From Candidatus Heimdallarchaeota archaeon (GTDB taxonomy: Archaea > Asgardarchaeota > Heimdallarchaeia > Heimdallarchaeales > Heimdallarchaeaceae): 54,527 bases of DNA. The DNA lies in assembly GCA_019057815.1 (NCBI GenBank), contig JAHLWR010000023.1, positions 1-54,527 on the forward strand, read 5' to 3'. Each line of letters starts with the position of its first letter. The first letter of the stretch is position 1. Positions 9,984 to 38,186 of this stretch are shown here, piece by piece. The notes under the pieces are model-generated. The model had not been told where the DNA came from. It worked only from the letters and a program-made list of their open reading frames with translations, and did not search any database. Position numbers and translations under genes: made by a program.

Positions 9984-11480
9984 TTAAGCTTGTCTAACTA
10001 TATCACCTAATACGTCTTCAGGGTTGTATTTCCACTCTTGAAAGACTGTCTCGTATTTGTCCATAGGTATAGACCATCTTTTGCTATACATCTGATTAAC
10101 AACGAAAATCTTGAGAATATTCTCACTGAAGTCTTCCTCTAATATGTCAATCGCTTCTAGAACTAGGTTTGGTGGAACCCTTAGAACAAAATAATATCCA
10201 GACTTATTATCTGTAAGAAATTGTTCGCTGTAAACTTCAGGAAGGATAGAAAATTTATTGTGATATTCTAGTTGTTTATCATCTGAATTTCGCAAAAAAA
10301 GAACTATATTCGTAAGACTGAAGATATAGGAAGGATTGATTTTATGTGAATAGATATTGCTGTCTTCGAGGTTCTTTATGTGGTTTTTGACTGTCCTTTC
10401 AGAGTATTTGAGGTTATTAGCAATCTGTTTAATTGTCAGATGATTATTATAGAGAATATGATTCAATATTTCTATACCTTCCTTATTTAGATTGATTTTA
10501 TAATCAAGATCATTCGTCTGTGACTGTTGGACAAAAAAAGCTTGTTTGTCTCTAATTTGATTATAAAAACTGAAATGCATCCTGATATCATAAGACTCTA
10601 AATTCCATTCTTTTGATTGTATGTCATAAATTGAATAATTAAAAGACTTCAATCTAGTAGCATTCTTAAACCTTAAAATGAGCGAATCAGCTATCTGAAA
10701 ATCACTTTCGAGATTTTGAACCAATCGATGAAGGTCTCTAGAAACTTCAGGGATAGCAGGAGCAACATATTGGATGAGCAATTTATTGTTGCCTAAATAA
10801 CTCTGGAAAATAGAATGGAGAAAAGGACTGTTAGGTATTTCTTTTAAAATAGCTTCGGACAATGATTTAGAAGATTCAAGGTAGACGCCATATACAGCAA
10901 GATTTAAGCGGGGATAGTTAAGAGAAATTCCTTGAAAGACAATTCCCTTTTCCATTAATCTCCTCTTGTATTTTGATAAGTTTGAGGAATCAATTTCCAA
11001 GTGTTTTAGAAGATTATTGGATTTCAAAGATTGACATTTAAGTGCAGCTAGAAATAAACTAAACTCACGTTTAGATAAAGTAGGTAAAATTTTCGAACAA
11101 TAGTCAAAGAAAATAGAGAAAAAAGTGTTCCAATCAAGAGAATTGGTATCTAATCTATTAAGTTCTAGAAGCTTGTAAGCCAGTTTATTGAAATTATTAT
11201 CAGCAATTAAGGGAATGTAAGAGTAGGGTACTCTATATTGTAAATTCCTGTAAACTCGATTTGTACTTCGTTTTTCCCAAAACTCATTCCATGTAAATTC
11301 GAGAGATTTAATATGTGAAAAATTAGCATATGTTAGAAAACATGCTAGGTCCCAAGCTGGGGAATAAGGTTTGATCTCATACTTAGTTATCAGATTATCA
11401 AAAAAAGGTGATTCCTTTTTGAGTATATTATAAGCTTCTTCGATTATTTCCAACTCAGAAGGTGTAAGTTTTGAAGGCAT
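9984..11480 (-). CDS. Large tandem winged-HTH (Lrp/AsnC-like architecture) transcriptional regulator
   Basis: Two HTH segments: 'LSKREFSLFLAAL..LLKHLEIDSSNLSKYKRRLMEKGIV' and 'LNKEGIEILNHI..TIKQIANNLKYSERTVKNHIKNLE'. Confidence 0.65.
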   Translation of the reverse strand: MPSKLTPSELEIIEEAYNILKKESPFFDNLITKYEIKPYSPAWDLACFLTYANFSHIKSLEFTWNEFWEKRSTNRVYRNLQYRVPYSYIPLIADNNFNKLAYKLLELNRLDTNSLDWNTFFSIFFDYCSKILPTLSKREFSLFLAALKCQSLKSNNLLKHLEIDSSNLSKYKRRLMEKGIVFQGISLNYPRLNLAVYGVYLESSKSLSEAILKEIPNSPFLHSIFQSYLGNNKLLIQYVAPAIPEVSRDLHRLVQNLESDFQIADSLILRFKNATRLKSFNYSIYDIQSKEWNLESYDIRMHFSFYNQIRDKQAFFVQQSQTNDLDYKINLNKEGIEILNHILYNNHLTIKQIANNLKYSERTVKNHIKNLEDSNIYSHKINPSYIFSLTNIVLFLRNSDDKQLEYHNKFSILPEVYSEQFLTDNKSGYYFVLRVPPNLVLEAIDILEEDFSENILKIFVVNQMYSKRWSIPMDKYETVFQEWKYNPEDVLGDIVRQA

Positions 11481-11575: not shown

Positions 11576-11600
11576 GGTAAATGAACATGATTTTTTTACC
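11576..11600 (+). promoter_or_regulatory. 25-bp palindromic operator RGTAA-N15-TTACC (copy 1)
   Basis: GGTAAATGAACATGATTTTTTTACC; same span and ends at 20957-20981 and 25287-25311. Confidence 0.6.
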
Positions 11601-11652
11601 ATTATGAAGCAAAATGAGCAGTTTTATTAAAATTCGAATGATGATAAAAACA

Positions 11653-12378
11653 ATGCTTCAGCTTATAGAATGCACATTAAAACCGGAAGATGATGAGATA
11701 CTAAGCAAAATAGAAAAAGATATGCTAACAACTGATGAGTACTTTATACATAGTAGAGAATTAATGAGTTCATTGCAACGACAATCGGCTAGAACAAAAA
11801 TAAGAACGAATAGACTATCAGAAAATGAGATCAAAAGATTGAATTTCTACTGTTATCCAGCTTACACTCTAGAAAAACCATTGTACCTATCACATAAATA
11901 TGATATAATAACAACTTTGTGTAATCTAAGAGATGAAATTAAAGAAGGAGAAAGCTATATAACAAGAATAACAGAGAATCAAAAAATTCTACAAGATTCT
12001 GTTATTTTTAGATTCTATGTCTTATGTAAAGAAGAAGGAATCTGTCTGCCAGAAAATCTATACTTAGATGAGAAACAGACGTTTTGCTCCCTAAAGATAA
12101 AAGAAATTATCATAGATGAAGTAGTTCTAGAACCAGAATATGCAATAAAGTATAACGTTCCTGTGGTATTAGGTGATTATGACAATGGAAGAAGTATAGA
12201 AAAGGGTAAAGTACATTTCATGAAACCATCTCCTATTGTAACAGAAGTAGTTGGTAAGTTACCATACATTAGAGGAAAAGAAGAGAATACAAAAAGAAGT
12301 GTAAAGATACCTCTACCAGAACATTTCATAGATTGTTGGAAAATCACGAGAGAAGAGGAAAGTAATATTAAAAACTGA
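11653..12378 (+). CDS. Orphan, divergent type I-D Cas5 (Csc1)-like RAMP protein
   Basis: Colinear by-eye resemblance to Csc1: LIECTL/IHSRELMSSL/YCYPA/FRFYV/LPENLYL/MKPSPIV/VKIP versus recalled YRCQL/IHNYALCYAL/YVTPA/FEFFI/LPKWIRLG/MPPVSLI/VKIP; ATG 11653 fits TATA ~11622-11631 (ORF track start is 11614). Confidence 0.6.
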   Translation: MLQLIECTLKPEDDEILSKIEKDMLTTDEYFIHSRELMSSLQRQSARTKIRTNRLSENEIKRLNFYCYPAYTLEKPLYLSHKYDIITTLCNLRDEIKEGESYITRITENQKILQDSVIFRFYVLCKEEGICLPENLYLDEKQTFCSLKIKEIIIDEVVLEPEYAIKYNVPVVLGDYDNGRSIEKGKVHFMKPSPIVTEVVGKLPYIRGKEENTKRSVKIPLPEHFIDCWKITREEESNIKN

Positions 12379-12529
12379 TTCAAATTGTTCGAGCTCTAAG
12401 GGAAATGTTGGTAATAAGCAAGGATTGAAACAAGTAGATGATGGATTTAGAAATAGTTATTTTACAAGAAGATTGGTAATAAAGGTAAAAACTATTGGAA
12501 TTGTACCTTAAAAGAAATTTATTTAGTTC

Positions 12530-12575
12530 AGAAAATGTCTTGACTGAAAGGAGTAAGTCAACCTTCAACTAATGA
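12530..12575 (+). pseudogene. Decayed remnant of a cas4 3' end
   Basis: AGAAAATGTCTTGACTG...GTCAACCTTCAACTAATGAATTTGC mirrors the cas4 end AGAAAATGTGTTGACTG...GTCAACCAAGCAACTATTAATTTGC (~29195-29253). Confidence 0.55.
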
Positions 12576-12673
12576 ATTTGCATATCTTTATAAAGGATTT
12601 TCAAATCGAAGATATGCAACAAAAGAGAAAATAAGATCGAGTCTAATAGAGAAAAACACGAGAAATAGGCTCG
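12575..12673 (+). promoter_or_regulatory. CRISPR leader 1
   Basis: Near-identical to 29247-29346; TTTATAAA TATA box inside an 11-bp inverted repeat. Confidence 0.88.
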
Positions 12674-14147
12674 GTTGCAAATCGTATCTCAAATACTAGA
12701 GAATTGAAATACTCACCGTGTATTCTTTCATATATCCTTTTCCAGTTTGAGTTGCAAATCGTATCTCAAATACTAGAGAATTGAAATACGTAGGAGGTAA
12801 AAATTATCAGACGTCTGATAATTGAGTTGCAAATCGTATCTCAAATACTAGAGAATTGAAATCGTTGATCCATTTCGGATTTATGACCTTCTATCATGGC
12901 AGGTTGCAAATCGTATCTCAAATACTAGAGAATTGAAATATCTTGAGCAAAGAAAGCCCCTATATCCAAACTAAAAGTTGCAAATCGTATCTCAAATACT
13001 AGAGAATTGAAATTCTTAAGAGTTCTAAAGGGCAAATGATAACTATGGATAGTTGCAAATCGTATCTCAAATACTAGAGAATTGAAATCAAATAGACTGG
13101 GCACAAGTAAGGAAAGAAGCAGATAAAAGTTGCAAATCGTATCTCAAATACTAGAGAATTGAAATGAAGTAAGCGAAGAGAGTTACGGCGCGGTAGCGAA
13201 AGTAAGTTGCAAATCGTATCTCAAATACTAGAGAATTGAAATTTAATATAAAGTTTCTTGCCCCCTTTAGTTGTTGGTAAGGTTGCAAATCGTATCTCAA
13301 ATACTAGAGAATTGAAATTAAGGGCGCAAGCGTTCTGCTCTGGTGAGAACCTCACTACGTTGCAAATCGTATCTCAAATACTAGAGAATTGAAATATTAG
13401 AGCGCTAAACTCTGGATTACCCGATAATTCTTGTTGCAAATCGTATCTCAAATACTAGAGAATTGAAATAGCAAGTGTTTCTGTATCTCCTTCCTCAAAG
13501 TCCCAAGCGTTGCAAATCGTATCTCAAATACTAGAGAATTGAAATCTTACGAAAAGCGTAATAATACCTTACGACCAGATTTATGTTGCAAATCGTATCT
13601 CAAATACTAGAGAATTGAAATTAAGTTTAGCCCTAAAACGTGAATAATAAGTCTTGATTTTGTTGCAAATCGTATCTCAAATACTAGAGAATTGAAATCT
13701 TTAAAAGATCTGTCAAACCAACAGTGAGTATATTAGTTGCAAATCGTATCTCAAATACTAGAGAATTGAAATATCGTTGAAGCACTTGTAGCCAAAAAGA
13801 AAGAACTTTTGTTGCAAATCGTATCTCAAATACTAGAGAATTGAAATACAATGGACTCATGTTGGATTGGATAAGGTGGGGGTGTGTTGCAAATCGTATC
13901 TCAAATACTAGAGAATTGAAATATACGAAAAAAGTCCAGTTGCTGAACCTGCAGCATTGTTGCAAATCGTATCTCAAATACTAGAGAATTGAAATTCGTA
14001 GGAGGAAAAACAGATGAGCACCAAAAAGAAGAAGTTGCAAATCGTATCTCAAATACTAGAGAATTGAATTTTTCTGGGGGGGGAAATCTGTAATGCTTGG
14101 GGCTGTGAAAGTTGCAAATCGTATCTCAAATACTAGAGAATTGAAAT
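12674..14147 (+). CRISPR. CRISPR array 1: 20 repeats GTTGCAAATCGTATCTCAAATACTAGAGAATTGAAAT, 19 spacers
   Basis: Counted directly; spacers ~36-40 nt; orientation from leader and ATTGAAAT 3' end. Confidence 0.98.
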
Positions 14148-14263
14148 ATATTGTGAGAAAATAAGTGAAATTAGAAGAAAAATAGGTGCATAAAATTCTA
14201 GGAATTTTTATCGATAATTCCTATTCTCTAAAGGTTTACTACACAATTTTCTTGTAAAAACTG

Positions 14264-14297
14264 AAAGTATCTTCCATTAATAGAAGATGCTTTTTTT
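14264..14297 (+). terminator. Hairpin + T7 tract, probable array-1 terminator
   Basis: AAAGTATCTTC-cattaata-GAAGATGCTTT running into a T7 tract. Confidence 0.5.
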
Positions 14298-14405
14298 CTA
14301 GTAAAAAGGCTTGAAATCATAACATTTCTCATATTTAGTAATTTTCAATGTAGAAGATATCCCCAATTCATCTTCTGTTTAATGTTTAACTGGAGGTGAA
14401 AAAAA

Positions 14406-14459
14406 GTGTCAGGACCCCCAGTTTGGCCACCAAATGATCCAGAACCATGGCCACCTTAA
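14406..14459 (+). CDS. Micro-ORF MSGPPVWPPNDPEPWPP (17 aa), candidate CreT-like or ribosome-stalling peptide
   Basis: GGAGGTGA SD at 14392-14399, 6-nt spacing, GTG start, TAA stop inside inverted repeat CCTTAAA/TTTAAGG; GC-rich island in AT-rich intergenic DNA. Confidence 0.55.
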   Translation: MSGPPVWPPNDPEPWPP

Positions 14460-14490
14460 AATTTAAGGCTAAAACATTGAAGCAATTGCA

Positions 14491-17124
14491 TCATTCTCTT
14501 TTTATTTTTTTTGATTTTTTGATTTGGCAAATATTCAAACCACCATTATCTTGATAAATCCACTCTTCTCCTTCTAAAAATATCCCCCAAACTCTATCAA
14601 AACCTCTATCTTTTAGAACTTGTAGACGATTCTTATTGTTTAGTGCTCTTTGCAATTGTTTCAATAAAGTTGTTGAAATCGCAATTGACTGTTCTCTAAA
14701 TTGACGAATAAATTGAAGGTTTTTCCCTGTGTCTAATTCTCTATAGAAGTTTAGGAAGTCTTTTTTAGATTTAAAAATTAACATAGTTTCCTTTACAGAC
14801 TCCTCAATTAATTGAAAAACGTTTTCAAGGCTTTCAATTCTAGTTGCTTTAAGTTCCTCTATTCCCTTTGATGTATCTTTTTTCTTTCCTATTAAAGAGA
14901 GTTCATTGAAATAATCTTGAATTATGCTTCCTAAATCTTTTTCATCAAATTGACTTGATTTCTCGAAAATCTTTTTTGTTTGTTCTATAAGTACTGGATC
15001 ATATATCATTCTGTGATAGGTTACATGCTCTGATTCTGGAATAGTTAATTCCCTAACATAAACAATACCTTTCTTTATATTATGTCTGTTACATCTCCCA
15101 GCTACCTGAATGATTGAATCTAGAGGTGCTAAATCTCTAAAAACATAATCAAAGGATGCATCTACTCCAGCTTCAATGACTTGAGTGCAAACTAAAATTA
15201 TTTTATGCTCTTTTTCTGTTATTTCTTTGATTATTTTCTTTCTATCTTTATAGCTAACAATTGAAGAGAGGAAAAGAATGGTCCTATCGTCAACTGTATC
15301 GATTAAATAATCAAAAAGCTGTCTTGCGCTTTCTTTTGTATTCAAAACAAACATAATTGAGCTGTCAGGATGGTCTTTAACATAAACTTCAGCTTCTGCT
15401 GCAAAATTGTTTAATGTAATCTTGTCTTTTAAGAAATTGATTTCATATCTATTAATACTCTGAGATGAATTATCTGTGTTTATCTCATAGCACTTGCTAA
15501 TCCACTTATTCCAATCGTAAGGAAAGGTTATTGCTTTTGGATATGTTGCACTACCAATTATAACATAACAACTATGAAAAATTGCAAGATGATGTATCAA
15601 TGTTGATATTAATTGCCAGTATTTAACAGGAATTCCTTGTATTTCATCAAAAATTATTATTGAATTTGTTAAACGATGAAATCTGAGATAATGTCTTTTC
15701 TTCCCGCCAAGAATTGAATTCCAGAATGAAACAAAAGTTGTAACAATAACATTAGATTTCCACAGAAATATAAAATCCCTACTTCTCTTGAAGTTTAATT
15801 CCTCACCTTCTTCCTCAAGATAATAACTAAATTCCGCTTCTGCTAAGTGATGGTGGATTGTAAGTAAATCTGTTTGTTTGTGTTTATATTCTTCCTGTAT
15901 TTCCATAGATTTTTCACACAATAATATCTTTGAAAGCTCATCTCCTACTTGATCTGTAATTGAAATGAATGGAAGAGAATAGATAATTCTGGGAATTATT
16001 CCTGTTTTGTTCTCGATTTCTTCTCGGAGTTTCATAGCTATATTCAAATAAGCTAAAGTTTTACCAGAACCTGTGGGATAAGAAATTGTAATGATTTTTT
16101 CATCACTGATATTTTGGTCAAGTAATTCTGTCTCCTCCCATAGTTCTTGTTTTATCTTAAGCAAAGGGTCAGTTTCGTTACAAGTTATTGGTTTGTGTTC
16201 TTGTTCTCTATATTTTCTGACAATATTACCACTAATATGAAATTTCTTCTCGTCAAAAAGAAAATCATGGTTATGAGTATCCGCTATATGTGATTTGGCA
16301 TCCCATTCATCACTATCACACAGAATTGAGTAGTAATTAAGAATTAAAGAAAAGAGTCGTAGGTCTGTGTTTTTCTTCTCCCATAAATCTTCAATATCAA
16401 ATAAAATAAATTCTAATTCATCAATGTCTGATAATTCGTTGAAAACCGTAAATGCTTTTTTGAAAGAATTAGAAAGAACTCGTCTCTTACTGAATAATGA
16501 TTTAAAGTAACAAAGTATTAAATCAGGATATTTGCAGTTAGAGGGGTCAAAATCAGAGAAATCTGAAAAATCAATATTTTCAAAGTTAGGATAATTGACA
16601 TAATAATCTTGTATTTTAGTGATTATGTTTTTAAACACTGAGCGTGTAAAACCCATACCCTTTTCTTTGATCATTGTACTATCTAAACAGTTAACTAGTA
16701 CACCCCTATTATGATGATTAAGAATACTAAATACTATAGCCAATAAATGTAAATCAAAGATATTTGAGTTTCTTTCATCTCTTTTATATACCTCTTCTAG
16801 ATAGCAAGATACGAACAACCAAGCAAAAACAGCACCTATCTGAGTATGATAGCTATGTGAGGTCTGCTCATGAATATTTAAGGATGGATTAACTTTACTC
16901 TGGAAAAAAGGATTTATCTTTCCAATATCGTGGGATATGGCTAGAATTAACATTAAATCTTCTTGAATTTGAGAATCAAACGAGAATAACGAAGATGAAA
17001 GTAAACTCTTCTTTTGCGTGTTTTTCTGTAACTCAATCCAGATATTTTCTATATGTCTAACCAAACTCTGGTTTGGCCTTGCATATAAAAAGAACGAAGG
17101 TTTGCTTATTGTTTTTTGATTCAA
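14491..17124 (-). CDS. cas3: CRISPR-associated helicase/HD nuclease Cas3
   Basis: HDIGK HD motif, PTGSGKT, FDEIQ, SAT, TQVIEAGVD, QVAGRCNR. Confidence 0.96.
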   Translation of the reverse strand: MNQKTISKPSFFLYARPNQSLVRHIENIWIELQKNTQKKSLLSSSLFSFDSQIQEDLMLILAISHDIGKINPFFQSKVNPSLNIHEQTSHSYHTQIGAVFAWLFVSCYLEEVYKRDERNSNIFDLHLLAIVFSILNHHNRGVLVNCLDSTMIKEKGMGFTRSVFKNIITKIQDYYVNYPNFENIDFSDFSDFDPSNCKYPDLILCYFKSLFSKRRVLSNSFKKAFTVFNELSDIDELEFILFDIEDLWEKKNTDLRLFSLILNYYSILCDSDEWDAKSHIADTHNHDFLFDEKKFHISGNIVRKYREQEHKPITCNETDPLLKIKQELWEETELLDQNISDEKIITISYPTGSGKTLAYLNIAMKLREEIENKTGIIPRIIYSLPFISITDQVGDELSKILLCEKSMEIQEEYKHKQTDLLTIHHHLAEAEFSYYLEEEGEELNFKRSRDFIFLWKSNVIVTTFVSFWNSILGGKKRHYLRFHRLTNSIIIFDEIQGIPVKYWQLISTLIHHLAIFHSCYVIIGSATYPKAITFPYDWNKWISKCYEINTDNSSQSINRYEINFLKDKITLNNFAAEAEVYVKDHPDSSIMFVLNTKESARQLFDYLIDTVDDRTILFLSSIVSYKDRKKIIKEITEKEHKIILVCTQVIEAGVDASFDYVFRDLAPLDSIIQVAGRCNRHNIKKGIVYVRELTIPESEHVTYHRMIYDPVLIEQTKKIFEKSSQFDEKDLGSIIQDYFNELSLIGKKKDTSKGIEELKATRIESLENVFQLIEESVKETMLIFKSKKDFLNFYRELDTGKNLQFIRQFREQSIAISTTLLKQLQRALNNKNRLQVLKDRGFDRVWGIFLEGEEWIYQDNGGLNICQIKKSKKIKRE

Positions 17125-17136
17125 TGAATTCCCTCA

Positions 17137-17922
17137 TTATAGAAAAACAATATTTTCTTCTTTGTCATTTATTTGGTATTTGAAAACTCGATTGTTTTTG
17201 AAAGATAATTTAATTCCATCTTCTATATCAGTTTCCTTGAATATTATGTTGACTGTCTTTTCTAAAGAAATTAGTGAATTCTCATATTTTAGAGTGTGAG
17301 GGATGTTATAAATAATTGTAAAACCAAAAATATCTGTATCGATGTCGTCTCCTACAGCTTCTGTACTTATGATTGAGTGAACTTCATGAATACCTGAATC
17401 TTGTCTTATACTTTTGTAATTTCCAATAAAATGGATTTCTGCTAACATATTTGCATGTCCTAAATATGGTGGATAACAGTATTTGTTGTTAGTCAATCGT
17501 TCTTCGAGATCTTCCATTATCTGTAAGTCTTTACAATAAAAATACACCCGAAATTTAACATTTCTCAAGATGTTTAGAAATATTTGAGCGTTGAATCCTC
17601 TAGAGTCCGAGGTTTTAACTCCAAGAGGATCCCCTGGCATTATTATTCTTAATCTATTAGGAAGACTCAAGGTAGTCTTAGTTTGGAGATAGTTAACAAG
17701 CATCTTAGATCTCCAAATAGGATTAAGAATTCTAATAGAAACCATTGAGTTTTTATAATCTTCATTTGACCAATATTCATTTCGTTCAAGCCCAAGAACA
17801 GCTCCTGTAAGTCCTAGAATGACTGTTCTAGAGGGGAAAGGGTAGCTTATGTTTTCACGGGTTGTATCATAAGCTCTGAAATGTGCAAAGTTACCGGACA
17901 CATCAAAAACTATGGTTTCCAT
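17137..17922 (-). CDS. cas5: Type I-B Cas5
   Basis: 'FDVSGNFAHFR..SYPFPSRTVILGLTGAVLG', 'PYLG'. Confidence 0.93.
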   Translation of the reverse strand: METIVFDVSGNFAHFRAYDTTRENISYPFPSRTVILGLTGAVLGLERNEYWSNEDYKNSMVSIRILNPIWRSKMLVNYLQTKTTLSLPNRLRIIMPGDPLGVKTSDSRGFNAQIFLNILRNVKFRVYFYCKDLQIMEDLEERLTNNKYCYPPYLGHANMLAEIHFIGNYKSIRQDSGIHEVHSIISTEAVGDDIDTDIFGFTIIYNIPHTLKYENSLISLEKTVNIIFKETDIEDGIKLSFKNNRVFKYQINDKEENIVFL

Positions 17923-17933
17923 GAGATCACTCT

Positions 17934-18869
17934 TTATAGATCTTTTACCCTAAAACCATTTTCTTCTAACACAGTTTTCATGCTGTTATATTCTTTATCA
18001 CTGTATAGTAGGACAAGATCATTGGTCTCTTTAAGTTCTATTAACTCAATTTGGTCTTGATATAGTTTTAGAGTGTTAATGAACTCATCAATGCAGAGAT
18101 TGGCTTCTTCAGGTCCATTGATGTCTTCTTCTTTAGACAGTTTAAGTTTGTTTTCTAATCCGCCAATTTGGAACTCCTTTTCCTTTGAGACTACTGATAG
18201 AAGTAATCGTGGATTATGGTTAAACTTGGATCTTGTGTTTATTTGTTTTGTACCAAACCACATAGCATTATACAGATGTGTTAAATCTTCCTCACTAAAC
18301 AAAGTTTTTTCGCTATTGTATTCACAAGCGATTCCATGAAAGAGTATCATAGAATAATCTACGTAATGAAATTGTCCCATAGATCCAGCTCCTTGTTCAC
18401 CAGTTGAGGATAAAACAGTGGTTATGCCCATGGTGTTCAGCTCAGGTTTGTTTAGCGACTTGCCAATTCCAAATTGCGTTGGACCAGTGATAGAAACATT
18501 TGCTTTTGGAAGAGTTATAGCTGCACCAAAGGTTCGAACATCTATATATCTTTCAGGTGCCAATCGAATTAATTCATCTCTAGTGAGTTTTTTTGTTTCT
18601 GTAATTCCAAATTCTTTAGATACAATGTCTCTCATGCTCATAACAGTTTGCTGGTCGTCTTTGAATTGTTGTCTAATTAAGACTCTCAGATTATCATCTT
18701 TTTGTGATATCCAAAAATCTCTAATCGTTCTTTTCAATCTAAGATCAGTGACAAGATTATAACCTTGTTCATCCATTCGAGGTCTGTTACCATCATCTGG
18801 ATCACCATTAGGATTTGATCGAGTCACATCATAGATAAACAATATTTCTCTTCTATTCTGTAATAACAT
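17934..18869 (-). CDS. cas7: Type I-B Cas7 (Csh2 family)
   Basis: 'SNPNGDPDDGNRPRMD', 'DLRLKRTIRD', 'DVRTFGA', 'TGPTQFG'; ATG 18869 follows AGGTGA SD. Confidence 0.95.
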   Translation of the reverse strand: MLLQNRREILFIYDVTRSNPNGDPDDGNRPRMDEQGYNLVTDLRLKRTIRDFWISQKDDNLRVLIRQQFKDDQQTVMSMRDIVSKEFGITETKKLTRDELIRLAPERYIDVRTFGAAITLPKANVSITGPTQFGIGKSLNKPELNTMGITTVLSSTGEQGAGSMGQFHYVDYSMILFHGIACEYNSEKTLFSEEDLTHLYNAMWFGTKQINTRSKFNHNPRLLLSVVSKEKEFQIGGLENKLKLSKEEDINGPEEANLCIDEFINTLKLYQDQIELIELKETNDLVLLYSDKEYNSMKTVLEENGFRVKDL

Positions 18870-19311
18870 TTTTTTCACCTTCTATACTTTTCTTATCAAT
18901 TTTAACAAAATATGAAAATCCCATCATAAAAGCAAGCGACAATTCATCATAAGTACTTTCCCAATTGTCCTTGCTTATTAGTTCACTAATCTGGTTCCTA
19001 AGAAATGCTCCAGTTTGCTTTGTCTCCTTATTCTTTGATATTAGTCTTTTAACTACCGAATTGCATTTATCTAGGATTTTCAGTAGTTGCTCTCTATTTA
19101 ATCTCTGAGTGTACATAGGAAGTTTTGTATATAGACTAGTTGTTCGGAGAACTGTTTTTTCTTTTGATGCTAAGTAACCGTAGTATCTCCCAATTAAGAA
19201 AGATATTTTTCGATCATCTTTGTCAAAAAATTCTCTTTGAAGATATTCAGCTTCTTTGCTCTCTCTTTTCTTTTTATTTAAATCCTCTATATTCTTTTCA
19301 TTTATGACCAT
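18853..19311 (-). CDS. Cas11-like small subunit (equivalent to the C-terminal domain of Cas8b), separately encoded
   Basis: Alpha-helical; 'SFLIGRY' and terminal 'LAFMMGF' resemble the Cas8b/TM1802 C-terminus; lies between cas8 and cas7. Confidence 0.7.
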   Translation of the reverse strand: MVINEKNIEDLNKKKRESKEAEYLQREFFDKDDRKISFLIGRYYGYLASKEKTVLRTTSLYTKLPMYTQRLNREQLLKILDKCNSVVKRLISKNKETKQTGAFLRNQISELISKDNWESTYDELSLAFMMGFSYFVKIDKKSIEGEKNVITE

Positions 19312-19315
19312 TTTT

Positions 19316-20866
19316 TCACCTTAAAATATCTGCTATAAATAGAAGTTGATGAGTAAAATGAAAGATTTGCATATCTCTATTAAAGAGGAATCTTTCTTTC
19401 CATACATCTTTATAGTTAGAAGTGATAATCTTTCTGAATCTTGGATTAAGAACGTTATTAGCTTGTTTATAAAAATCTCTTTTAGATATTGTTCGACTGT
19501 TAAATAGAGACTGAATTATCTTTCTGCCTAATTTTTCGCCAAAAGTAGAAACTAAGAATCCAAATTCGAATTTAATAGTTTTGTTGAAAAAGTTATCAAC
19601 CTCCTCAATCCAGTCAACAATTTGTTTAATCCTGTATTTACTGCCATAGATAATATCTTCAATGAATTTCTTTTTATTGCCAGAAACTTGTTTCTCTACA
19701 AAATAAAAATCCATGATAGCCATATCACTTTCTTTAGCGCATTGTAAGATGTTAAGTAAATCTACATCTTGGCTAGATGCTAAAATCCCCCGGTCTTCAT
19801 TAAATTTAATATTATTCTTTCTTTGTTTGATTTGTTTGATAAGTGATTGTTTTTGTTGTTTACTTATATCTGATAATTTAGAAGATAATTCTTCTATTTT
19901 AAGTCTAAGCGTTGTCTGCTTTGTTTCATAATGATTCTTTCTGAATAATTCCAATTTTTGTACAAACATCATAATTTTCTCGGAGGATTCTACAAGAGGG
20001 ATAATGCTGTGATGAACCGTTTTAATGTCTCTAGAGCTTTTCCTTTCTTTATAAGCTTCAAATTTTAAAACTGTATCCATTATATTATAACCATTTCTAA
20101 AGAAATTTTCACAATCTTCACAGATCATAGCTTGATATGATTTAGAAAAACCCAATTGGAAGCTTACTTGATCGATTGAAAAAAGATTAAAGAATTTGCA
20201 CTTATCCATAGATATTAGATTGTCTTTTTTAATTCCACATGCAAGACAAACCAAAGCTTCACTCTTTTTAGAGCTTTTTTTACTCAAATTTTCGAGACTT
20301 AGATATATTTCTCTGAACTTGTCTATTTCTCCCGGATATAAGAGTCCATTCTCTTTTCTAAATATAAATAGTAGGAATCTAGGAGCATCTTTTGAAATGA
20401 TTTTTTCTCCTTTTTTGTTTGTTTCTAAGTGATTTTCCTTGATATAATCATATATCCTTTTTTCTAATTGCTCTCTATTGTTAAGCAACCAATTATTAAA
20501 TCTGAAGGGTAGACTATTCTGTTCTAGAATAATGTCATCTGGTAGAATTATTTTGTCAAAATTAACTAAATCTGAAGGACTGAAATCATCGAAATTTTTA
20601 TTTGTACCTTTTTGCTGTTTAATACTACAAAAAGGAGAATAATTCCTACTTGATCCAGTGCTTAATCCTGGAAGATATTTATCAATCATCGATTCTTGGT
20701 AATCCGATAGGTTCAAAGCTCCTATCTCAGAAGCATCCAAGTCTATAACAACATCTAGAAGTTTTTTCGTTCTAATATTCTTCTTTTGTTCATCTAATAG
20801 GATAGAAAGTTCATCTTTATCACCTATCATAGCTTTTCCGATTTTTGTTAATGAACTTACTATCAT
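19316..20866 (-). CDS. cas8b: Type I-B large subunit Cas8b (lacking the C-terminal Cas11 part)
   Basis: First gene of effector operon; CLAC...FSIDQVSF...ICEDC Zn finger typical of Cas8b/TM1802. Confidence 0.8.
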   Translation of the reverse strand: MIVSSLTKIGKAMIGDKDELSILLDEQKKNIRTKKLLDVVIDLDASEIGALNLSDYQESMIDKYLPGLSTGSSRNYSPFCSIKQQKGTNKNFDDFSPSDLVNFDKIILPDDIILEQNSLPFRFNNWLLNNREQLEKRIYDYIKENHLETNKKGEKIISKDAPRFLLFIFRKENGLLYPGEIDKFREIYLSLENLSKKSSKKSEALVCLACGIKKDNLISMDKCKFFNLFSIDQVSFQLGFSKSYQAMICEDCENFFRNGYNIMDTVLKFEAYKERKSSRDIKTVHHSIIPLVESSEKIMMFVQKLELFRKNHYETKQTTLRLKIEELSSKLSDISKQQKQSLIKQIKQRKNNIKFNEDRGILASSQDVDLLNILQCAKESDMAIMDFYFVEKQVSGNKKKFIEDIIYGSKYRIKQIVDWIEEVDNFFNKTIKFEFGFLVSTFGEKLGRKIIQSLFNSRTISKRDFYKQANNVLNPRFRKIITSNYKDVWKERFLFNRDMQIFHFTHQLLFIADILR

Positions 20867-20956: not shown

Positions 20957-20981
20957 GGTAAAAAAAAGAACTATAATTACC
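20957..20981 (-). promoter_or_regulatory. 25-bp palindromic operator (copy 2) upstream of cas8b
   Basis: Sense strand GGTAATTATAGTTCTTTTTTTTACC, ~24 nt before TTTATATT. Confidence 0.6.
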
Positions 20982-20987
20982 TTTTTT

Positions 20988-22436
20988 TCATTTATTAAAA
21001 ATAACGGATTTAACATAACTGTTATCCAAATTCAAAGCATACATTTTTTTTGTTTGGGTTTCTTTTACATAAATAAGAAGAATAAGATCCTTATCTGCAA
21101 GGGCTGAAAGAATGTCAGGTAAAGGTTTTCTTAATTCACTTATAGTAATTTTCACATTATAATGATTATACCCTTCCCAACTGAATAAGTTATCACGAAT
21201 GTGATTAGCTGTTATTGCTGCAAAGTAATTCTGGTTTCTGATGAATTTTTCATCTAAGCGCTGTTTTTGTAGTTCATCAAAAAAAACACTAAGTAAGTAG
21301 TTGAACATGAGCTCTTCCCTTTTATTGGAAAAAGGGTAAACTTTGTCAAATCTTTTCTGAGAGAATCTTTTTCTTAGAGAACTAACAAAAATATTACTCT
21401 TTGAAAGCAAAAGTAGTAGTTCATAGGAATCCCAGGAATCAATCACATCAAAAACCATATTTTCTAATTCACGGAAGCTCTTAGTGTAATTGTATATCCC
21501 AGAAATAGTGGAAAATAGCTTTCTTTGATAGTTTTTAGGTAGATAAAACGATCTAAAATCTTCAGAAGAGTAAAGTAAAGGATCCAATACTGAGAAAATA
21601 AATTCAACTAATTCAATTTTCTGAAGAGGGGAGAGTTTTGAGACAACACCTGCTTTTATTAAATATTTCATTCTAGAAAGCAAAGTTAAAAGAACAAAAC
21701 TATATAATATAGCGGTTTTAACTCTCTGTCGTAACTTATAGGGTGGTTTTTCATTTCCATAAATGATTAAGAATTGGTTTTTGTTTAGAATATGAAGCCA
21801 CCCACATTCAAATCTTGGTGTATCAAAAATATCCACATTAATTCCTAATTCATTATAGGTATCAATAGTTGTTTCAATGACAGTAAAGATATCTGAGAAC
21901 TCAAGTGAGGGTTTATCATGAGTAAAAACTGAATCCATAATAGGAATTTTAAACTTACGAGTTAGAGAATGGAAAGATTCTCGAATACAACGAATTTGTT
22001 TTTCAAAATCAAGTTGAATTTGTTTAGATTTAAGTGACATAGTTAGTTTCAACTCAGAAATTAGACACGGGTAGAGTCGTGAGGATAAAAAACAATTAGG
22101 ATGCTTATACTGGAGATTTTTAATTTTCCACTTTTTAATTCTGGTTGTAAAAGGGAGCAAAGGTCGAAGAGGATGATTATCATAAACAGGAATTCTGATA
22201 TTTCTAATGTAAAAGTATGAATCGTTTCCATGAGGACAAAGATATGGACCTAATCCCCTAATGTAAGGTAAAGAGATATCAGTTGGTTTATCTTTAAAAT
22301 CAAAAAAAAGTTGTTGAGCATTTCCAGTATTAGATTTAAGAAAATCAAAAGAAACTCGAATATTAGAATCCCATAAAATTTCAGTAAAAGGAAGAAATCT
22401 GTATATATGGATTAGAATATCCTCCAAAATTATCAC
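20988..22436 (-). CDS. Hypothetical protein with probable C-terminal winged HTH
   Basis: 482-aa ORF; tail 'TANHIRDNL..ISELRKPLPDILSALADKDLILL..KKMYALN' is wHTH-like; real start may be TTG 22427 after AGGTGA. Confidence 0.6.
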   Translation of the reverse strand: MIILEDILIHIYRFLPFTEILWDSNIRVSFDFLKSNTGNAQQLFFDFKDKPTDISLPYIRGLGPYLCPHGNDSYFYIRNIRIPVYDNHPLRPLLPFTTRIKKWKIKNLQYKHPNCFLSSRLYPCLISELKLTMSLKSKQIQLDFEKQIRCIRESFHSLTRKFKIPIMDSVFTHDKPSLEFSDIFTVIETTIDTYNELGINVDIFDTPRFECGWLHILNKNQFLIIYGNEKPPYKLRQRVKTAILYSFVLLTLLSRMKYLIKAGVVSKLSPLQKIELVEFIFSVLDPLLYSSEDFRSFYLPKNYQRKLFSTISGIYNYTKSFRELENMVFDVIDSWDSYELLLLLSKSNIFVSSLRKRFSQKRFDKVYPFSNKREELMFNYLLSVFFDELQKQRLDEKFIRNQNYFAAITANHIRDNLFSWEGYNHYNVKITISELRKPLPDILSALADKDLILLIYVKETQTKKMYALNLDNSYVKSVIFNK

Positions 22437-25286: not shown

Positions 25287-25311
25287 AGTAAAAATCAATC
25301 TTATTTTTACC
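25287..25311 (+). promoter_or_regulatory. 25-bp palindromic operator (copy 3) upstream of cas6
   Basis: AGTAAAAATCAATCTTATTTTTACC, ~23 nt before TTTTATTT. Confidence 0.6.
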
Positions 25312-26326: not shown

Positions 26327-27271
26327 ATGGTTAAAAGTGAGAAAAAAGAGAAAAATAATCAAATAACGAGATTTTCAACAGAATTCTCGACCTTATTTGA
26401 TGATGAAAGCAATGAGGATTTTTCATTTTTACCTGTAGTGTCTTCGTATTCAATTCTTCCAATTGATTCTGATTGTTTTGTAAGTTACATAATTATTAAA
26501 GAAAACCAAGAAGTGATGACACGTTGTTTACTTGATGGATTGTTGTATCTCACTTTTGGAGAGAAAAGATGTTTGAAATGCGGGGCGCTAAACCTTCAGA
26601 AAGATGAAAGATATTGTAAATACTGTGATGATGATGAAGACAAAGCTTATCTTAAATGCTTATTTCATTCACCTTTGAAAGTCTATGGTAACAAATGCTT
26701 TGCTGATCATCCTTTATGCAGTTATGCTGACAATATCTACAGGTGTTTTGATAGATATTATTTGTATATTGGAAGAATAGGGGAACAAATCAAAACTGGA
26801 ATTAGTAGATATAGAAATAGACCACTGAAATTCAAGAGGTTGGTAGAACAGGGATTAAATGAAGCATGGATCATCTATCCTTTTGAATCGCTCTCTGAAG
26901 TAACAAGTTTTGAAAGACTGCTTATAGATGAATATGGGATAGAAGAAAGGATAACTTTTGCAGAAAAGGTAGATAATCTAATCTATCCTTCAACAATTTC
27001 CTTAGCTAGCTTTTTCACTGAAAATCAATTTAAAGAGCTTTTTCCAGATAAAAAAATTATTAAGAAAGAATATTATAGGGAGGGATTTTTCAATGATTAT
27101 CTATCGTCAAGTTTTGAAATAGTTTTGAAGCAAGAAATTGATGAAATACAAGGAAATGTTGTTTTTTCTCAAGGAAATATAGGCGTTGTTAAACAAAAAT
27201 ACCAACTAACTTTTTTCGACATCAGTAAACTTATTGGAAAAACCGTTAAAACCGAGGGAGACTTGTGGTAA
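26327..27271 (+). CDS. DUF2797-like protein (Zn-binding Cys pairs + GIY-YIG-like motif)
   Basis: CLKC..CKYC; 'YYLYIG..IKTGISR..RLVEQG' resembles the recalled DUF2797 'YVYLA..KVGITR..RWIDQG'; overlaps cas1 start. Confidence 0.65.
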   Translation: MVKSEKKEKNNQITRFSTEFSTLFDDESNEDFSFLPVVSSYSILPIDSDCFVSYIIIKENQEVMTRCLLDGLLYLTFGEKRCLKCGALNLQKDERYCKYCDDDEDKAYLKCLFHSPLKVYGNKCFADHPLCSYADNIYRCFDRYYLYIGRIGEQIKTGISRYRNRPLKFKRLVEQGLNEAWIIYPFESLSEVTSFERLLIDEYGIEERITFAEKVDNLIYPSTISLASFFTENQFKELFPDKKIIKKEYYREGFFNDYLSSSFEIVLKQEIDEIQGNVVFSQGNIGVVKQKYQLTFFDISKLIGKTVKTEGDLW

Positions 27272-36255: not shown

Positions 36256-36444
36256 GATGCATAGCGAATCTCAGCTACTAGAGAATTGAAATATAATCCA
36301 TGAAAGCATCGCTGAAATAGGGATTTTCAGGTTGCATACAGAATCTCACTAACTAGAGAATTGAAATGTATTATTAAGTTTAGCAGTATTATCTATCCAA
36401 TAACCTGGTTGCATATTGAATCTCAGCTACTAGAGAATTGAAAA
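36256..36444 (+). CRISPR. Leaderless degenerate mini-array: 3 repeats (36256, 36331, 36408), 2 spacers (38 and 40 nt)
   Basis: 37-nt repeats most like array 2, each different, all keeping TCTC/GAGA stem and ATTGAAA. Confidence 0.9.
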
Positions 36445-38149: not shown

Positions 38150-38186
38150 GTTGAATGCTGAATCTAAGTTACTAGAGAATTGAAAT
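38150..38186 (+). repeat. Solitary CRISPR repeat 1
   Basis: GTTGAATGCTGAATCTAAGTTACTAGAGAATTGAAAT. Confidence 0.85.

Follow-up and report, generated by a model that had tools for sequence, protein, structure and literature searches.

Cassettes that pair a peptide with its own regulator are known from Bacillota and their phages, as in the RRNPP-type systems Rgg/SHP, ComR/ComS, PlcR/PapR and AimR/AimP. Regulators of the Lrp/AsnC (feast/famine) family and the NirDL/AhbAB proteins have amino acids or tetrapyrroles as their known ligands, and we know of no member of either group that is paired with a dedicated micropeptide gene. Very short genes of another kind are the CreT toxins of CRISPR-Cas loci. 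CreT of haloarchaeal type I-B systems is of the tRNA-sequestering type (PMC8501985), and in the proline-codon CreT of the type I-F system of Pseudomonas aeruginosa a Shine-Dalgarno sequence (SD), a mini open reading frame (ORF) ending in P-P-stop and a hairpin arrest translation in vivo and in vitro, these three elements being sufficient for arrest in that organism (preprint 10.64898/2026.06.02.729485). Here we analyse a 54,527-nucleotide contig of a Candidatus Heimdallarchaeota archaeon (JAHLWR010000023.1, assembly GCA_019057815.1; this whole stretch is called the window below). An original prediction, made from the letters of the window, had singled out a proline- and tryptophan-rich micro-gene inside its type I-B CRISPR-Cas locus (14406-14459, plus strand) as a candidate CreT-like toxin or, alternatively, a signalling peptide. 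We find that this micro-gene is the third component of a conserved Asgard module that also comprises two large proteins, A and C; the module is undescribed, full-text literature searches having returned no account of such a micropeptide/regulator module. The best overall explanation of the three components, to which we give about even odds (roughly 0.5), is a peptide-plus-regulator switch.

The micro-gene is conserved as a protein-coding gene

It is highly probable that the 17-codon frame is a genuine, conserved coding gene and a member of the A/C module. A homology and synteny search, of the kind that the original prediction had suggested for the surroundings of related cas3 genes, recovered a family of micro-ORFs of 14-24 codons. 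Its 23 loci are spread over 21 genomes from two Asgard classes, among them the sister genome (two loci), 14 further genomes of the same family and five genomes of another Asgard class. Relatives were searched at the DNA level, then degenerate peptide patterns were run against the family, the order and a collection of 185,579 species, and further loci were obtained by scanning 5' of protein A homologues. Archaeal matches in the scan of the whole collection all fell in metagenome-assembled genomes of Candidatus Heimdallarchaeota, and the remainder in G+C-rich bacterial genomes.

The way in which these copies differ is telling of selection at the protein level. The first copy of the sister genome is syntenic and 94% identical; at its second locus just 5 of the 54 nucleotides of the ORF are changed, against an identity of 76% for the flanks. 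Another genus gave a short match, and the micro-ORF to which it pointed has kept the peptide pattern through many nucleotide changes. Among members of the subgroup with F-W-P-P, the variable columns at codon positions 1, 2 and 3 number 1, 0 and 6, and proline codons drift among CCA, CCC, CCT and CCG with the residues unchanged. Because the variation is mostly third-position or synonymous, the alignments indicate purifying selection on the amino-acid sequence of the peptide. A core D-P-x-P-hydrophobic-P is common to all members, mostly with P-P-(D/N/G) ahead of it. The N-terminal part and the exact C-terminal end are variable: the stop codon may follow directly after P-P, after one to eight added residues, or with one residue fewer. 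Signals outside the frame are conserved too, since GGAGGTG or GAGGTGA stands 7-10 nt before an ATG or GTG start in every family copy, hairpin(s) and/or a T-run lie 3' of every one, and a T-run is found 3' of the micro-ORF in all lineages.

The window copy starts with GTG at 14406, has 17 sense codons and ends with TAA at 14457-14459. Its acidic product of 17 residues contains the core P-P-N-D-P-E-P-W-P-P, with proline at codons 4, 5, 8, 9, 12, 14, 16 and 17 (eight in all), and thus reads two W-P-P, one P-P-N and a terminal P-P-TAA, together with G-P-P. Upstream lies the Shine-Dalgarno sequence GGAGGTGA (14392-14399), followed by seven A and then the start codon, from which it is 7 nt away. The stop codon is enclosed in an inverted repeat, CCTTAAA/TTTAAGG (14454-14468), that is predicted to form a small hairpin, and a T-rich run at 14494-14525, overlapping the last codons of cas3 on the opposite strand, is the likely archaeal terminator of the micro-gene. 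The original prediction had read the frame, its translation signals and the repeat around the stop codon correctly, and the analysis also bears out its notion of a small gene that is complete in itself, strongly equipped for translation and with a hairpin on its 3' side. The stop-codon hairpin is missing from the second copy of the sister genome, so it is not essential to the family.

The proline-rich frame is beyond chance. Proline makes up 3.0% of codons in the long ORFs of the window, which gives a probability of about 7.5e-9 for eight or more prolines in 16 codons, and the G+C content of the micro-ORF is 54% vs 32.7% for the window. Six of the eight proline codons are CCA, which accounts for 36% of proline codons in the window's long ORFs, and the lone CCC has no paired rare codon. 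The peptide carries neither a signal sequence nor a hydrophobic stretch, and the micro-ORF is present in single copy in the genome to which the window belongs. An Rfam scan of 12000-16000 with E-values up to 10 gave just two chance-level matches, located elsewhere, in the array, and the 5' untranslated region (UTR) plus ORF of the window copy did not fold significantly better than shuffled sequences (z of -1.4 and -0.15), for which reason no RNA structure is claimed here. We also considered a tRNA fragment or an att site, and dropped this reading when a tRNA/tmRNA scan of the window found none.

The micro-gene accompanies an operon for proteins A and C

An all-against-all comparison of the ORFs neighbouring these loci revealed one constant neighbourhood, consisting of A (~490-500 aa) followed by C (~480-510 aa) in one operon divergent from the micro-ORF. 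On the strand opposite to A and 180-245 nt from its start, the micro-ORF is found in 15 of the 23 family A copies with a readable 5' flank. The same holds in the other Asgard class, where the micro-ORF is beside A in five of six cases and a C-sized ORF with weak similarity to C comes after A. The C-A operon adjoins the micro-ORF in at least seven genomes. Conversely, the peptide patterns were absent from all 11 family genomes that have no A, a figure that is descriptive given that these genomes are related and incomplete.

A, C and the micro-ORF each occur exactly once in the window genome, and a stretch of 12.5 kb contains them all. Elsewhere the components are multiplied, and one genome (G022) has paralogous A copies that carry different peptides. 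The module behaves like accessory, duplicating DNA. Genome G002 has three tandem A paralogues (C37:347-5042) with no proline-rich micro-ORF upstream of any of them, and second, pseudogenised A copies occur in G004 and G012. A Zn-ribbon protein, B (~102-108 aa), accompanies the module in genus g3; one query did not find it in the window genome.

Protein A (498 aa; 9984-11480, minus strand) is composed of an N-terminal helical domain of 130 aa and two Lrp/AsnC-like units, each a winged helix-turn-helix (HTH) plus a RAM-like domain. In the structural model, with a predicted local distance difference test (pLDDT) of 75, the order of secondary structures is that of a winged HTH followed by a RAM-type alpha/beta domain, twice. 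The best solved match is NirDL (4ch7, E 5e-8) and many amino-acid-binding Lrp/FFRP regulators match at probability 1.0, each structural match covering one Lrp-like unit; no TPR-type peptide-binding domain was among them. At the sequence level the matches were weak and to HTH alone, including Csa3/CasR-type winged helices. The modelled fold of A is thus predicted to be that of a ligand-binding Lrp/AsnC regulator, twice over.

Protein C (482 aa; 20988-22436, minus strand) is modelled (pLDDT 78) with an alpha/beta domain, a second domain that is helical and, C-terminally, a winged helix; the last matches with a Z-score of about 8. Foldseek returned no match for it at E ≤0.001, and weaker rows (ORC, CorA, MarR) reflect the C-terminal winged helix. 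With VIA-align in wide mode, residues 366-482 alone were matched, leaving the N-terminal 360 residues without a clear fold match, and a protein atlas search yielded no usable match for the fold. A word-based search gave just two close homologues of C, and profiles of both proteins, A as well as C, met no significant match in a sequence search of the PDB.

A palindrome at a fixed distance marks the control region

Upstream of the micro-gene, a palindrome or hairpin followed by a T-run occupies 14263-14300 of the plus strand, with the core ATCTTC-N8-GAAGAT at 14269-14288. It is called as a terminator-like site, and its ATCTTC/GAAGAT core is unique in the window. Locus alignment and an inverted-repeat scan show that four genera have an equivalent palindrome, which stands -137 to -142 nt from where the micro-ORF starts. 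Its outer arms, GTATC/GATAC, are common to them, and the inner arms change symmetrically between lineages, from ATCTTC-N8-GAAGAT in the window to TCGGGTAAA...TACCCGA in genus g3 and to other sequences in g2 and g4. In g3 the palindrome lies within a divergent promoter region and has no co-directional gene upstream, hence it is not simply a terminator there. The most economical reading of these alignments is that the palindrome is an operator that co-evolves with its binding protein. The original prediction had taken 14263-14300 for the probable terminator of CRISPR array 1: the hairpin and T-run are real and may also end array transcripts, but the same distance to the micro-ORF is kept in relatives with no array upstream, and we therefore regard the candidate operator primarily as part of the micro-gene control region.

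Between this palindrome and the SD are two further elements. The A-rich block AAAAAGGCTTGAAAT ending CTTGAAAT (14303-14317, plus strand), previously pointed out as resembling a B recognition element and TATA box, is present and partly conserved across genera (AAG-C-TGAAA), and we take it as the putative promoter. A second inverted repeat, AGAAGAT-N11-ATCTTCT (14352-14376, plus strand), lies about 30 nt before the SD and could act as a 5'-UTR hairpin or as a second operator. Its arms recur at the equivalent place in subclade 2 of g3, where the loop carries a CCTCC anti-SD, and in two further lineages the SD is paired with another segment upstream. Masking of the SD by a 5'-UTR hairpin is suggested by these pairings; we grade it as suggestive because the free energy of the window copy is not significantly below that of shuffles.

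Other palindromes, of the form GGTAAA...TTTACC, are found in the window at the promoter of A itself (11576-11600) and at those of cas8b (20957-20981) and cas6 (25287-25311), and the half-site GGTAAA is common to these and to the micro-ORF palindrome of g3. In the window genome, A may have been co-opted as a cas regulator. Genus g3 has in addition a structured region of about 110 nt 3' of the micro-ORF (L046:3227-3340, with homologous stretches in L047-L050, and L018:9923-10040), nearly invariant within a subclade and with a fold z of -3.0. Its outer helix changes in a compensatory manner between subclades (GTTCCT/AGGAAC vs TCTCT/AGAGA). It may be an RNA element in its own right, and it is absent from the window's genus.

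The module is recurrently, but not obligatorily, associated with CRISPR-Cas

The CRISPR-Cas locus of the window is of type I-B. On the plus strand it has cas6, an uncharacterised 314-aa ORF, cas1, cas2 and cas4, and it holds three arrays. The effector cassette (14491-20866, minus strand; cas8b, a small-subunit ORF, cas7, cas5 and cas3) stands between the micro-gene and C. Its last gene encodes Cas3 (877 aa; 14491-17124, minus strand; HD, DEAD and Cas3 C-terminal domains), and it converges on the micro-gene, as had been noted in the original prediction when it argued that the ORF is not a leader. On the other side, a block inserted at 11614-14147 separates A from the micro-gene; it contains a 254-aa ORF (11614-12378, plus strand) and CRISPR array 1 (12674-14147, plus strand; 20 repeats), which ends 259 nt upstream of the micro-ORF start. 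In total the inserted DNA that keeps A and the micro-gene apart measures 2.9 kb. The gene order in the window genus is therefore A (minus), the 254-aa ORF (plus), array 1, the micro-gene (plus), followed by cas3 through cas8b and by C (all minus). Against the order C-A / micro-gene, which looks ancestral, type I-B CRISPR-Cas DNA has split the trio. Since CRISPR-Cas blocks are inserted among its members, the position of the module inside a CRISPR locus is secondary.

In the sister genome (G001, contig C243), A is followed at the second locus by the 254-aa ORF, an array, the micro-gene and C. There, between C and an intact micro-ORF, tblastn detected a decayed 3' remnant of cas3 (L010:1332-1553), corresponding to residues 801-873 at 58% identity and with an in-frame stop. 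Evidently the cas cassette was lost from this locus while the micro-ORF stayed intact. A C-terminus common to Cas3 and the sister C was also considered; BLASTP found none, and the DNA similarity is that of the decayed cas3 remnant.

In the complete genome of another genus the module sits in an I-B locus of another variant, whose repeat also differs (array, C, A, micro-gene, cas6-cas8b-cas7-cas5-cas3-cas4-cas1-cas2). In genus g3, it adjoins surface-protein or metabolic genes, and flanks of up to 9-10 kb contain no cas gene. Neither cas genes nor arrays are present in flanks of that size at ten or more of the family loci. The association with CRISPR-Cas is thus recurrent, having been seen in two genera, and is not obligatory, because g3 modules have no cas genes nearby.

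Some further features of the window's CRISPR-Cas DNA were recorded along the way. Degenerate CRISPR repeats occur outside the arrays, on the plus strand among genes for beta-helix surface proteins: a mini-array of three repeats at 36256-36444 (3-5 mismatches) and solo repeats at 38150-38186 and 43241-43277 (5-6 mismatches). The sequences following these repeats gave no match to the micro-gene region. Cas8b is split (18853-20866) into a 516-aa ORF and a 152-aa ORF that matches the C-terminal small-subunit part of Cas8b/Csh1. The 314-aa ORF, a Zn-ribbon protein encoded at 26327-27271 between cas6 and cas1 and overlapping the cas1 start, could be assigned to no family in Pfam, NCBIfam or PADLOC. 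The 254-aa ORF points away from A, keeps its position in the second sister locus and has a sub-threshold match to DUF7403 alone.

A peptide-plus-regulator switch as the preferred explanation

The switch that we propose would work as follows. A and C would be made from one operon, and the micro-gene would form a divergent unit of its own, ordered as palindrome (~140 nt upstream), promoter, 5'-UTR hairpin, perfect SD, ORF, and 3' hairpin(s) with a T-run. A, possibly together with C, would bind the palindromes and gate transcription of the micro-gene, and the peptide, once released, would act inside the cell as a small ligand or modulator of its cognate partner protein or proteins. As to the mode of action, a trans-acting peptide ligand is our tentative choice, at slightly lower confidence than the switch as such. 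It is favoured because the invariant core has alternating prolines (P-x-P-x-P) and not a P-P pair, because the position of P-P and its distance to the stop vary, and because paralogous A copies in one genome carry distinct peptides, a pattern that would be expected of specific ligand-receptor pairs. This comes close to the signalling peptide that the original prediction had offered as an alternative.

Several observations weigh against this explanation. As far as we know, the RAM domains of Lrp/AsnC proteins bind amino acids and other small molecules and not peptides, and there is no Lrp-type precedent for the latter. Eight family A copies have no micro-ORF. At least one P-P in a known stalling context is retained throughout the family. 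The palindrome in the window (ATCTTC/GAAGAT) differs from those at the A and cas promoters (GGTAAA/TTTACC), which makes A no more than a candidate for binding it. Finally, strong SDs and stabilising hairpins are hallmarks of CreT RNAs that arrest translation (PMC8501985; preprint 10.64898/2026.06.02.729485).

This last resemblance is what inspired the idea of a Cascade-repressed RNA toxin addicting its host to the type I-B system. In its anatomy (a strong SD, an efficient start codon, a hairpin on the 3' side) and in its place, with array 1 on one side and cas3 on the other, the micro-ORF does match a CreT; P-P-stop fits the proline-codon type, and a second genus likewise has the module inside a type I-B locus, a different one. 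Yet membership in CreTA is largely refuted, and we are close to certain that the micro-ORF does not belong there. We compared 89 spacers and post-repeat sequences with 14148-14530 (guides of the window, both strands, position 6 free, shuffled controls) and found no seed complementarity above shuffles: the best guide reached 10/11 in the seed and 21/40 overall, and shuffles reach 11/11 and 22. This agrees with the failure of the original prediction to find a convincing CreA-like guide, and no repeat-like sequence was present in 14148-14530 at up to 8 mismatches. The proline codons are common ones with no consecutive rare pair, and the 17 codons, three to four times longer than the 4-6 codons of CreT mini-ORFs, are conserved as protein. 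The window copy ends CCA CCT TAA, but P-P-stop is not conserved in the family, where endings vary and some have a single proline. The at least ten loci with no cas gene or array in the available flanks, and the sister ORF that is intact beside a decayed cas3 remnant, fit poorly with an addiction module for Cascade. A CreT-like toxin in the strict sense is thus contradicted by a family that is mostly outside CRISPR-Cas, is partnered by A and C and not by Cascade, and is under protein-level selection, with common proline codons and no guide. What survives of that proposal is ribosome stalling, since the known stalling contexts are there. In such a translation-arrest element the act of translating the ORF would be the function: a strong SD would load ribosomes onto motifs that depend on EF-P/aIF5A, and the stalled ribosomes would either sequester translation capacity, as a growth-arrest toxin silenced by A and C (a CreTA analogue with protein in place of CreA and Cascade), or report aIF5A or proline status. 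The window copy has G-P-P, P-P-N, W-P-P and P-P-stop, and relatives have P-P-D, P-P-G, P-P-Q, P-P-W and P-P-P. Contexts of this family (P-P-D/N/G/Q/W, G-P-P, P-P-P) are among the strongest EF-P/eIF5A-dependent stalling tripeptides, and proline before a stop slows termination (PMC5499558); the proline-codon CreT of P. aeruginosa, which arrests translation, has exactly the ending of the window copy (preprint 10.64898/2026.06.02.729485). Control by palindromes and SD-sequestering hairpins in several lineages would suit such an element, and a module that is patchy, multi-copy, partly pseudogenised and near CRISPR-Cas in two genera fits an accessory or addiction element. Nevertheless, the universal part is D-P-x-P-hydrophobic-P and not the P-P pair, P-P varies in position and in its distance to the stop (in one subgroup it stands at the very end alone, and the core of two members has none), and aromatic and acidic residues that a generic P-P staller would not need are conserved across classes. 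Altogether we consider stalling as the main function unlikely, though it is the strongest of the rivals.

Two other explanations fare worse. The peptide could be an exported signal or the precursor of a ribosomally synthesised and post-translationally modified peptide (RiPP), being modified and/or exported and then sensed by A or C in the manner of RRNPP or Rgg/SHP signalling between cells, or serving as the substrate of a modifying enzyme encoded in the module. NirDL, the best structural match of A, is an enzyme made of Lrp-like units, and the layout, in which the genes of a tiny peptide and of a large regulator point away from each other on either side of a palindrome, recalls Rgg/SHP and ComR/ComS. 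But a net acidic peptide with no signal sequence or hydrophobic stretch is a poor candidate for export, the module has no conserved neighbour that is a transporter, a peptidase or a known maturase, and A has no TPR-type peptide-binding domain, all of which leaves this option with little probability. Less probable still is a leader peptide or attenuator acting in cis on a downstream gene, in the manner of TnaC, MgtL or trpL. The short ORF, hairpins and T-run have the layout of an attenuator, and the micro-ORF is indeed 214 nt upstream of cas6-cas8b-cas7-cas5-cas3 in one genus and upstream of the 102-aa Zn-ribbon gene in other lineages. However, the downstream gene varies (Zn-ribbon, surface-protein, aminotransferase, cas6), and the window genus has no co-directional gene at all, with cas3 or C converging, yet the ORF is under purifying selection there. 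With a downstream gene that differs between lineages and is missing from the window genome, a leader role is very unlikely.

Combining these elements, one may speculate that the trio is an ancient Asgard device, either an intracellular peptide-receptor switch or a protein-repressed proline-stalling guard, that was recruited into type I-B loci in the window lineage and in at least one other genus, where it would couple cas expression or retention to the peptide. We consider this improbable in its full form.

Comparison with known systems

Genes of 14-24 codons are invisible to standard annotation, and the one described here, in the constant company of two DNA-binding proteins, is kept in more than one class of Asgard archaea, to which eukaryotes are more closely related than to any other known group. 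Its presence in type I-B loci of two genera implies that its function may bear on the regulation or retention of such loci.

The preferred peptide-plus-regulator switch is most reminiscent of RRNPP cassettes. In both, a tiny peptide gene (~15-25 codons) adjoins the gene of a large regulator, often divergently, with a palindrome in the common control region, and paralogous regulators each have their own peptide variant. The differences are considerable, nonetheless. A has a double Lrp/AsnC unit and an N-terminal domain of no known type in place of HTH plus TPR; the acidic peptide has no export signal, and neither an Opp-type importer nor a processing protease is linked to it; and the module co-encodes a second protein, C, and resides in an archaeal host, with peptide binding still putative. 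Compared with Lrp/AsnC regulators and the fused NirDL/AhbAB proteins, A is likewise built of two winged-HTH and RAM-like units, but has both in a single chain of ~495 aa preceded by the 130-aa helical domain. Should the peptide prove to be a ligand of its partner, this would be the first dedicated peptide-plus-regulator circuit in archaea, and on an Lrp-type fold not known to read peptides.

Proline-based leader and arrest peptides such as MgtL/MgtP, TnaC and the AZIN1 uCC (P-P-W) share with the micro-gene a short ORF rich in proline, aspartate and tryptophan, a predicted dependence on EF-P/aIF5A and a C-terminal part that is conserved where the N-terminal part is variable. Unlike them, the micro-gene has no conserved co-directional downstream gene, and none in the window genome.

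With CreT, the micro-gene has in common the layout of a small self-contained transcript, a strong SD, a very short ORF with an efficient start codon, a 3' hairpin and, in the window, P-P-stop and a type I-B location. It differs in having no CreA or seed match, 17 codons vs 4-6, and common codons, and its family differs in being partnered by a pair of DNA-binding proteins instead of Cascade and in residing mostly outside CRISPR loci. A CreT-like appearance, with an SD, a mini-ORF and a hairpin within a cas locus, is insufficient to call a CreTA. If the proline motifs do stall ribosomes, the proline-codon toxin principle would extend to archaea, with a protein repressor replacing Cascade; and if the module was recruited into cas loci, it would be to protein and peptide what the CreTA guards are to RNA.

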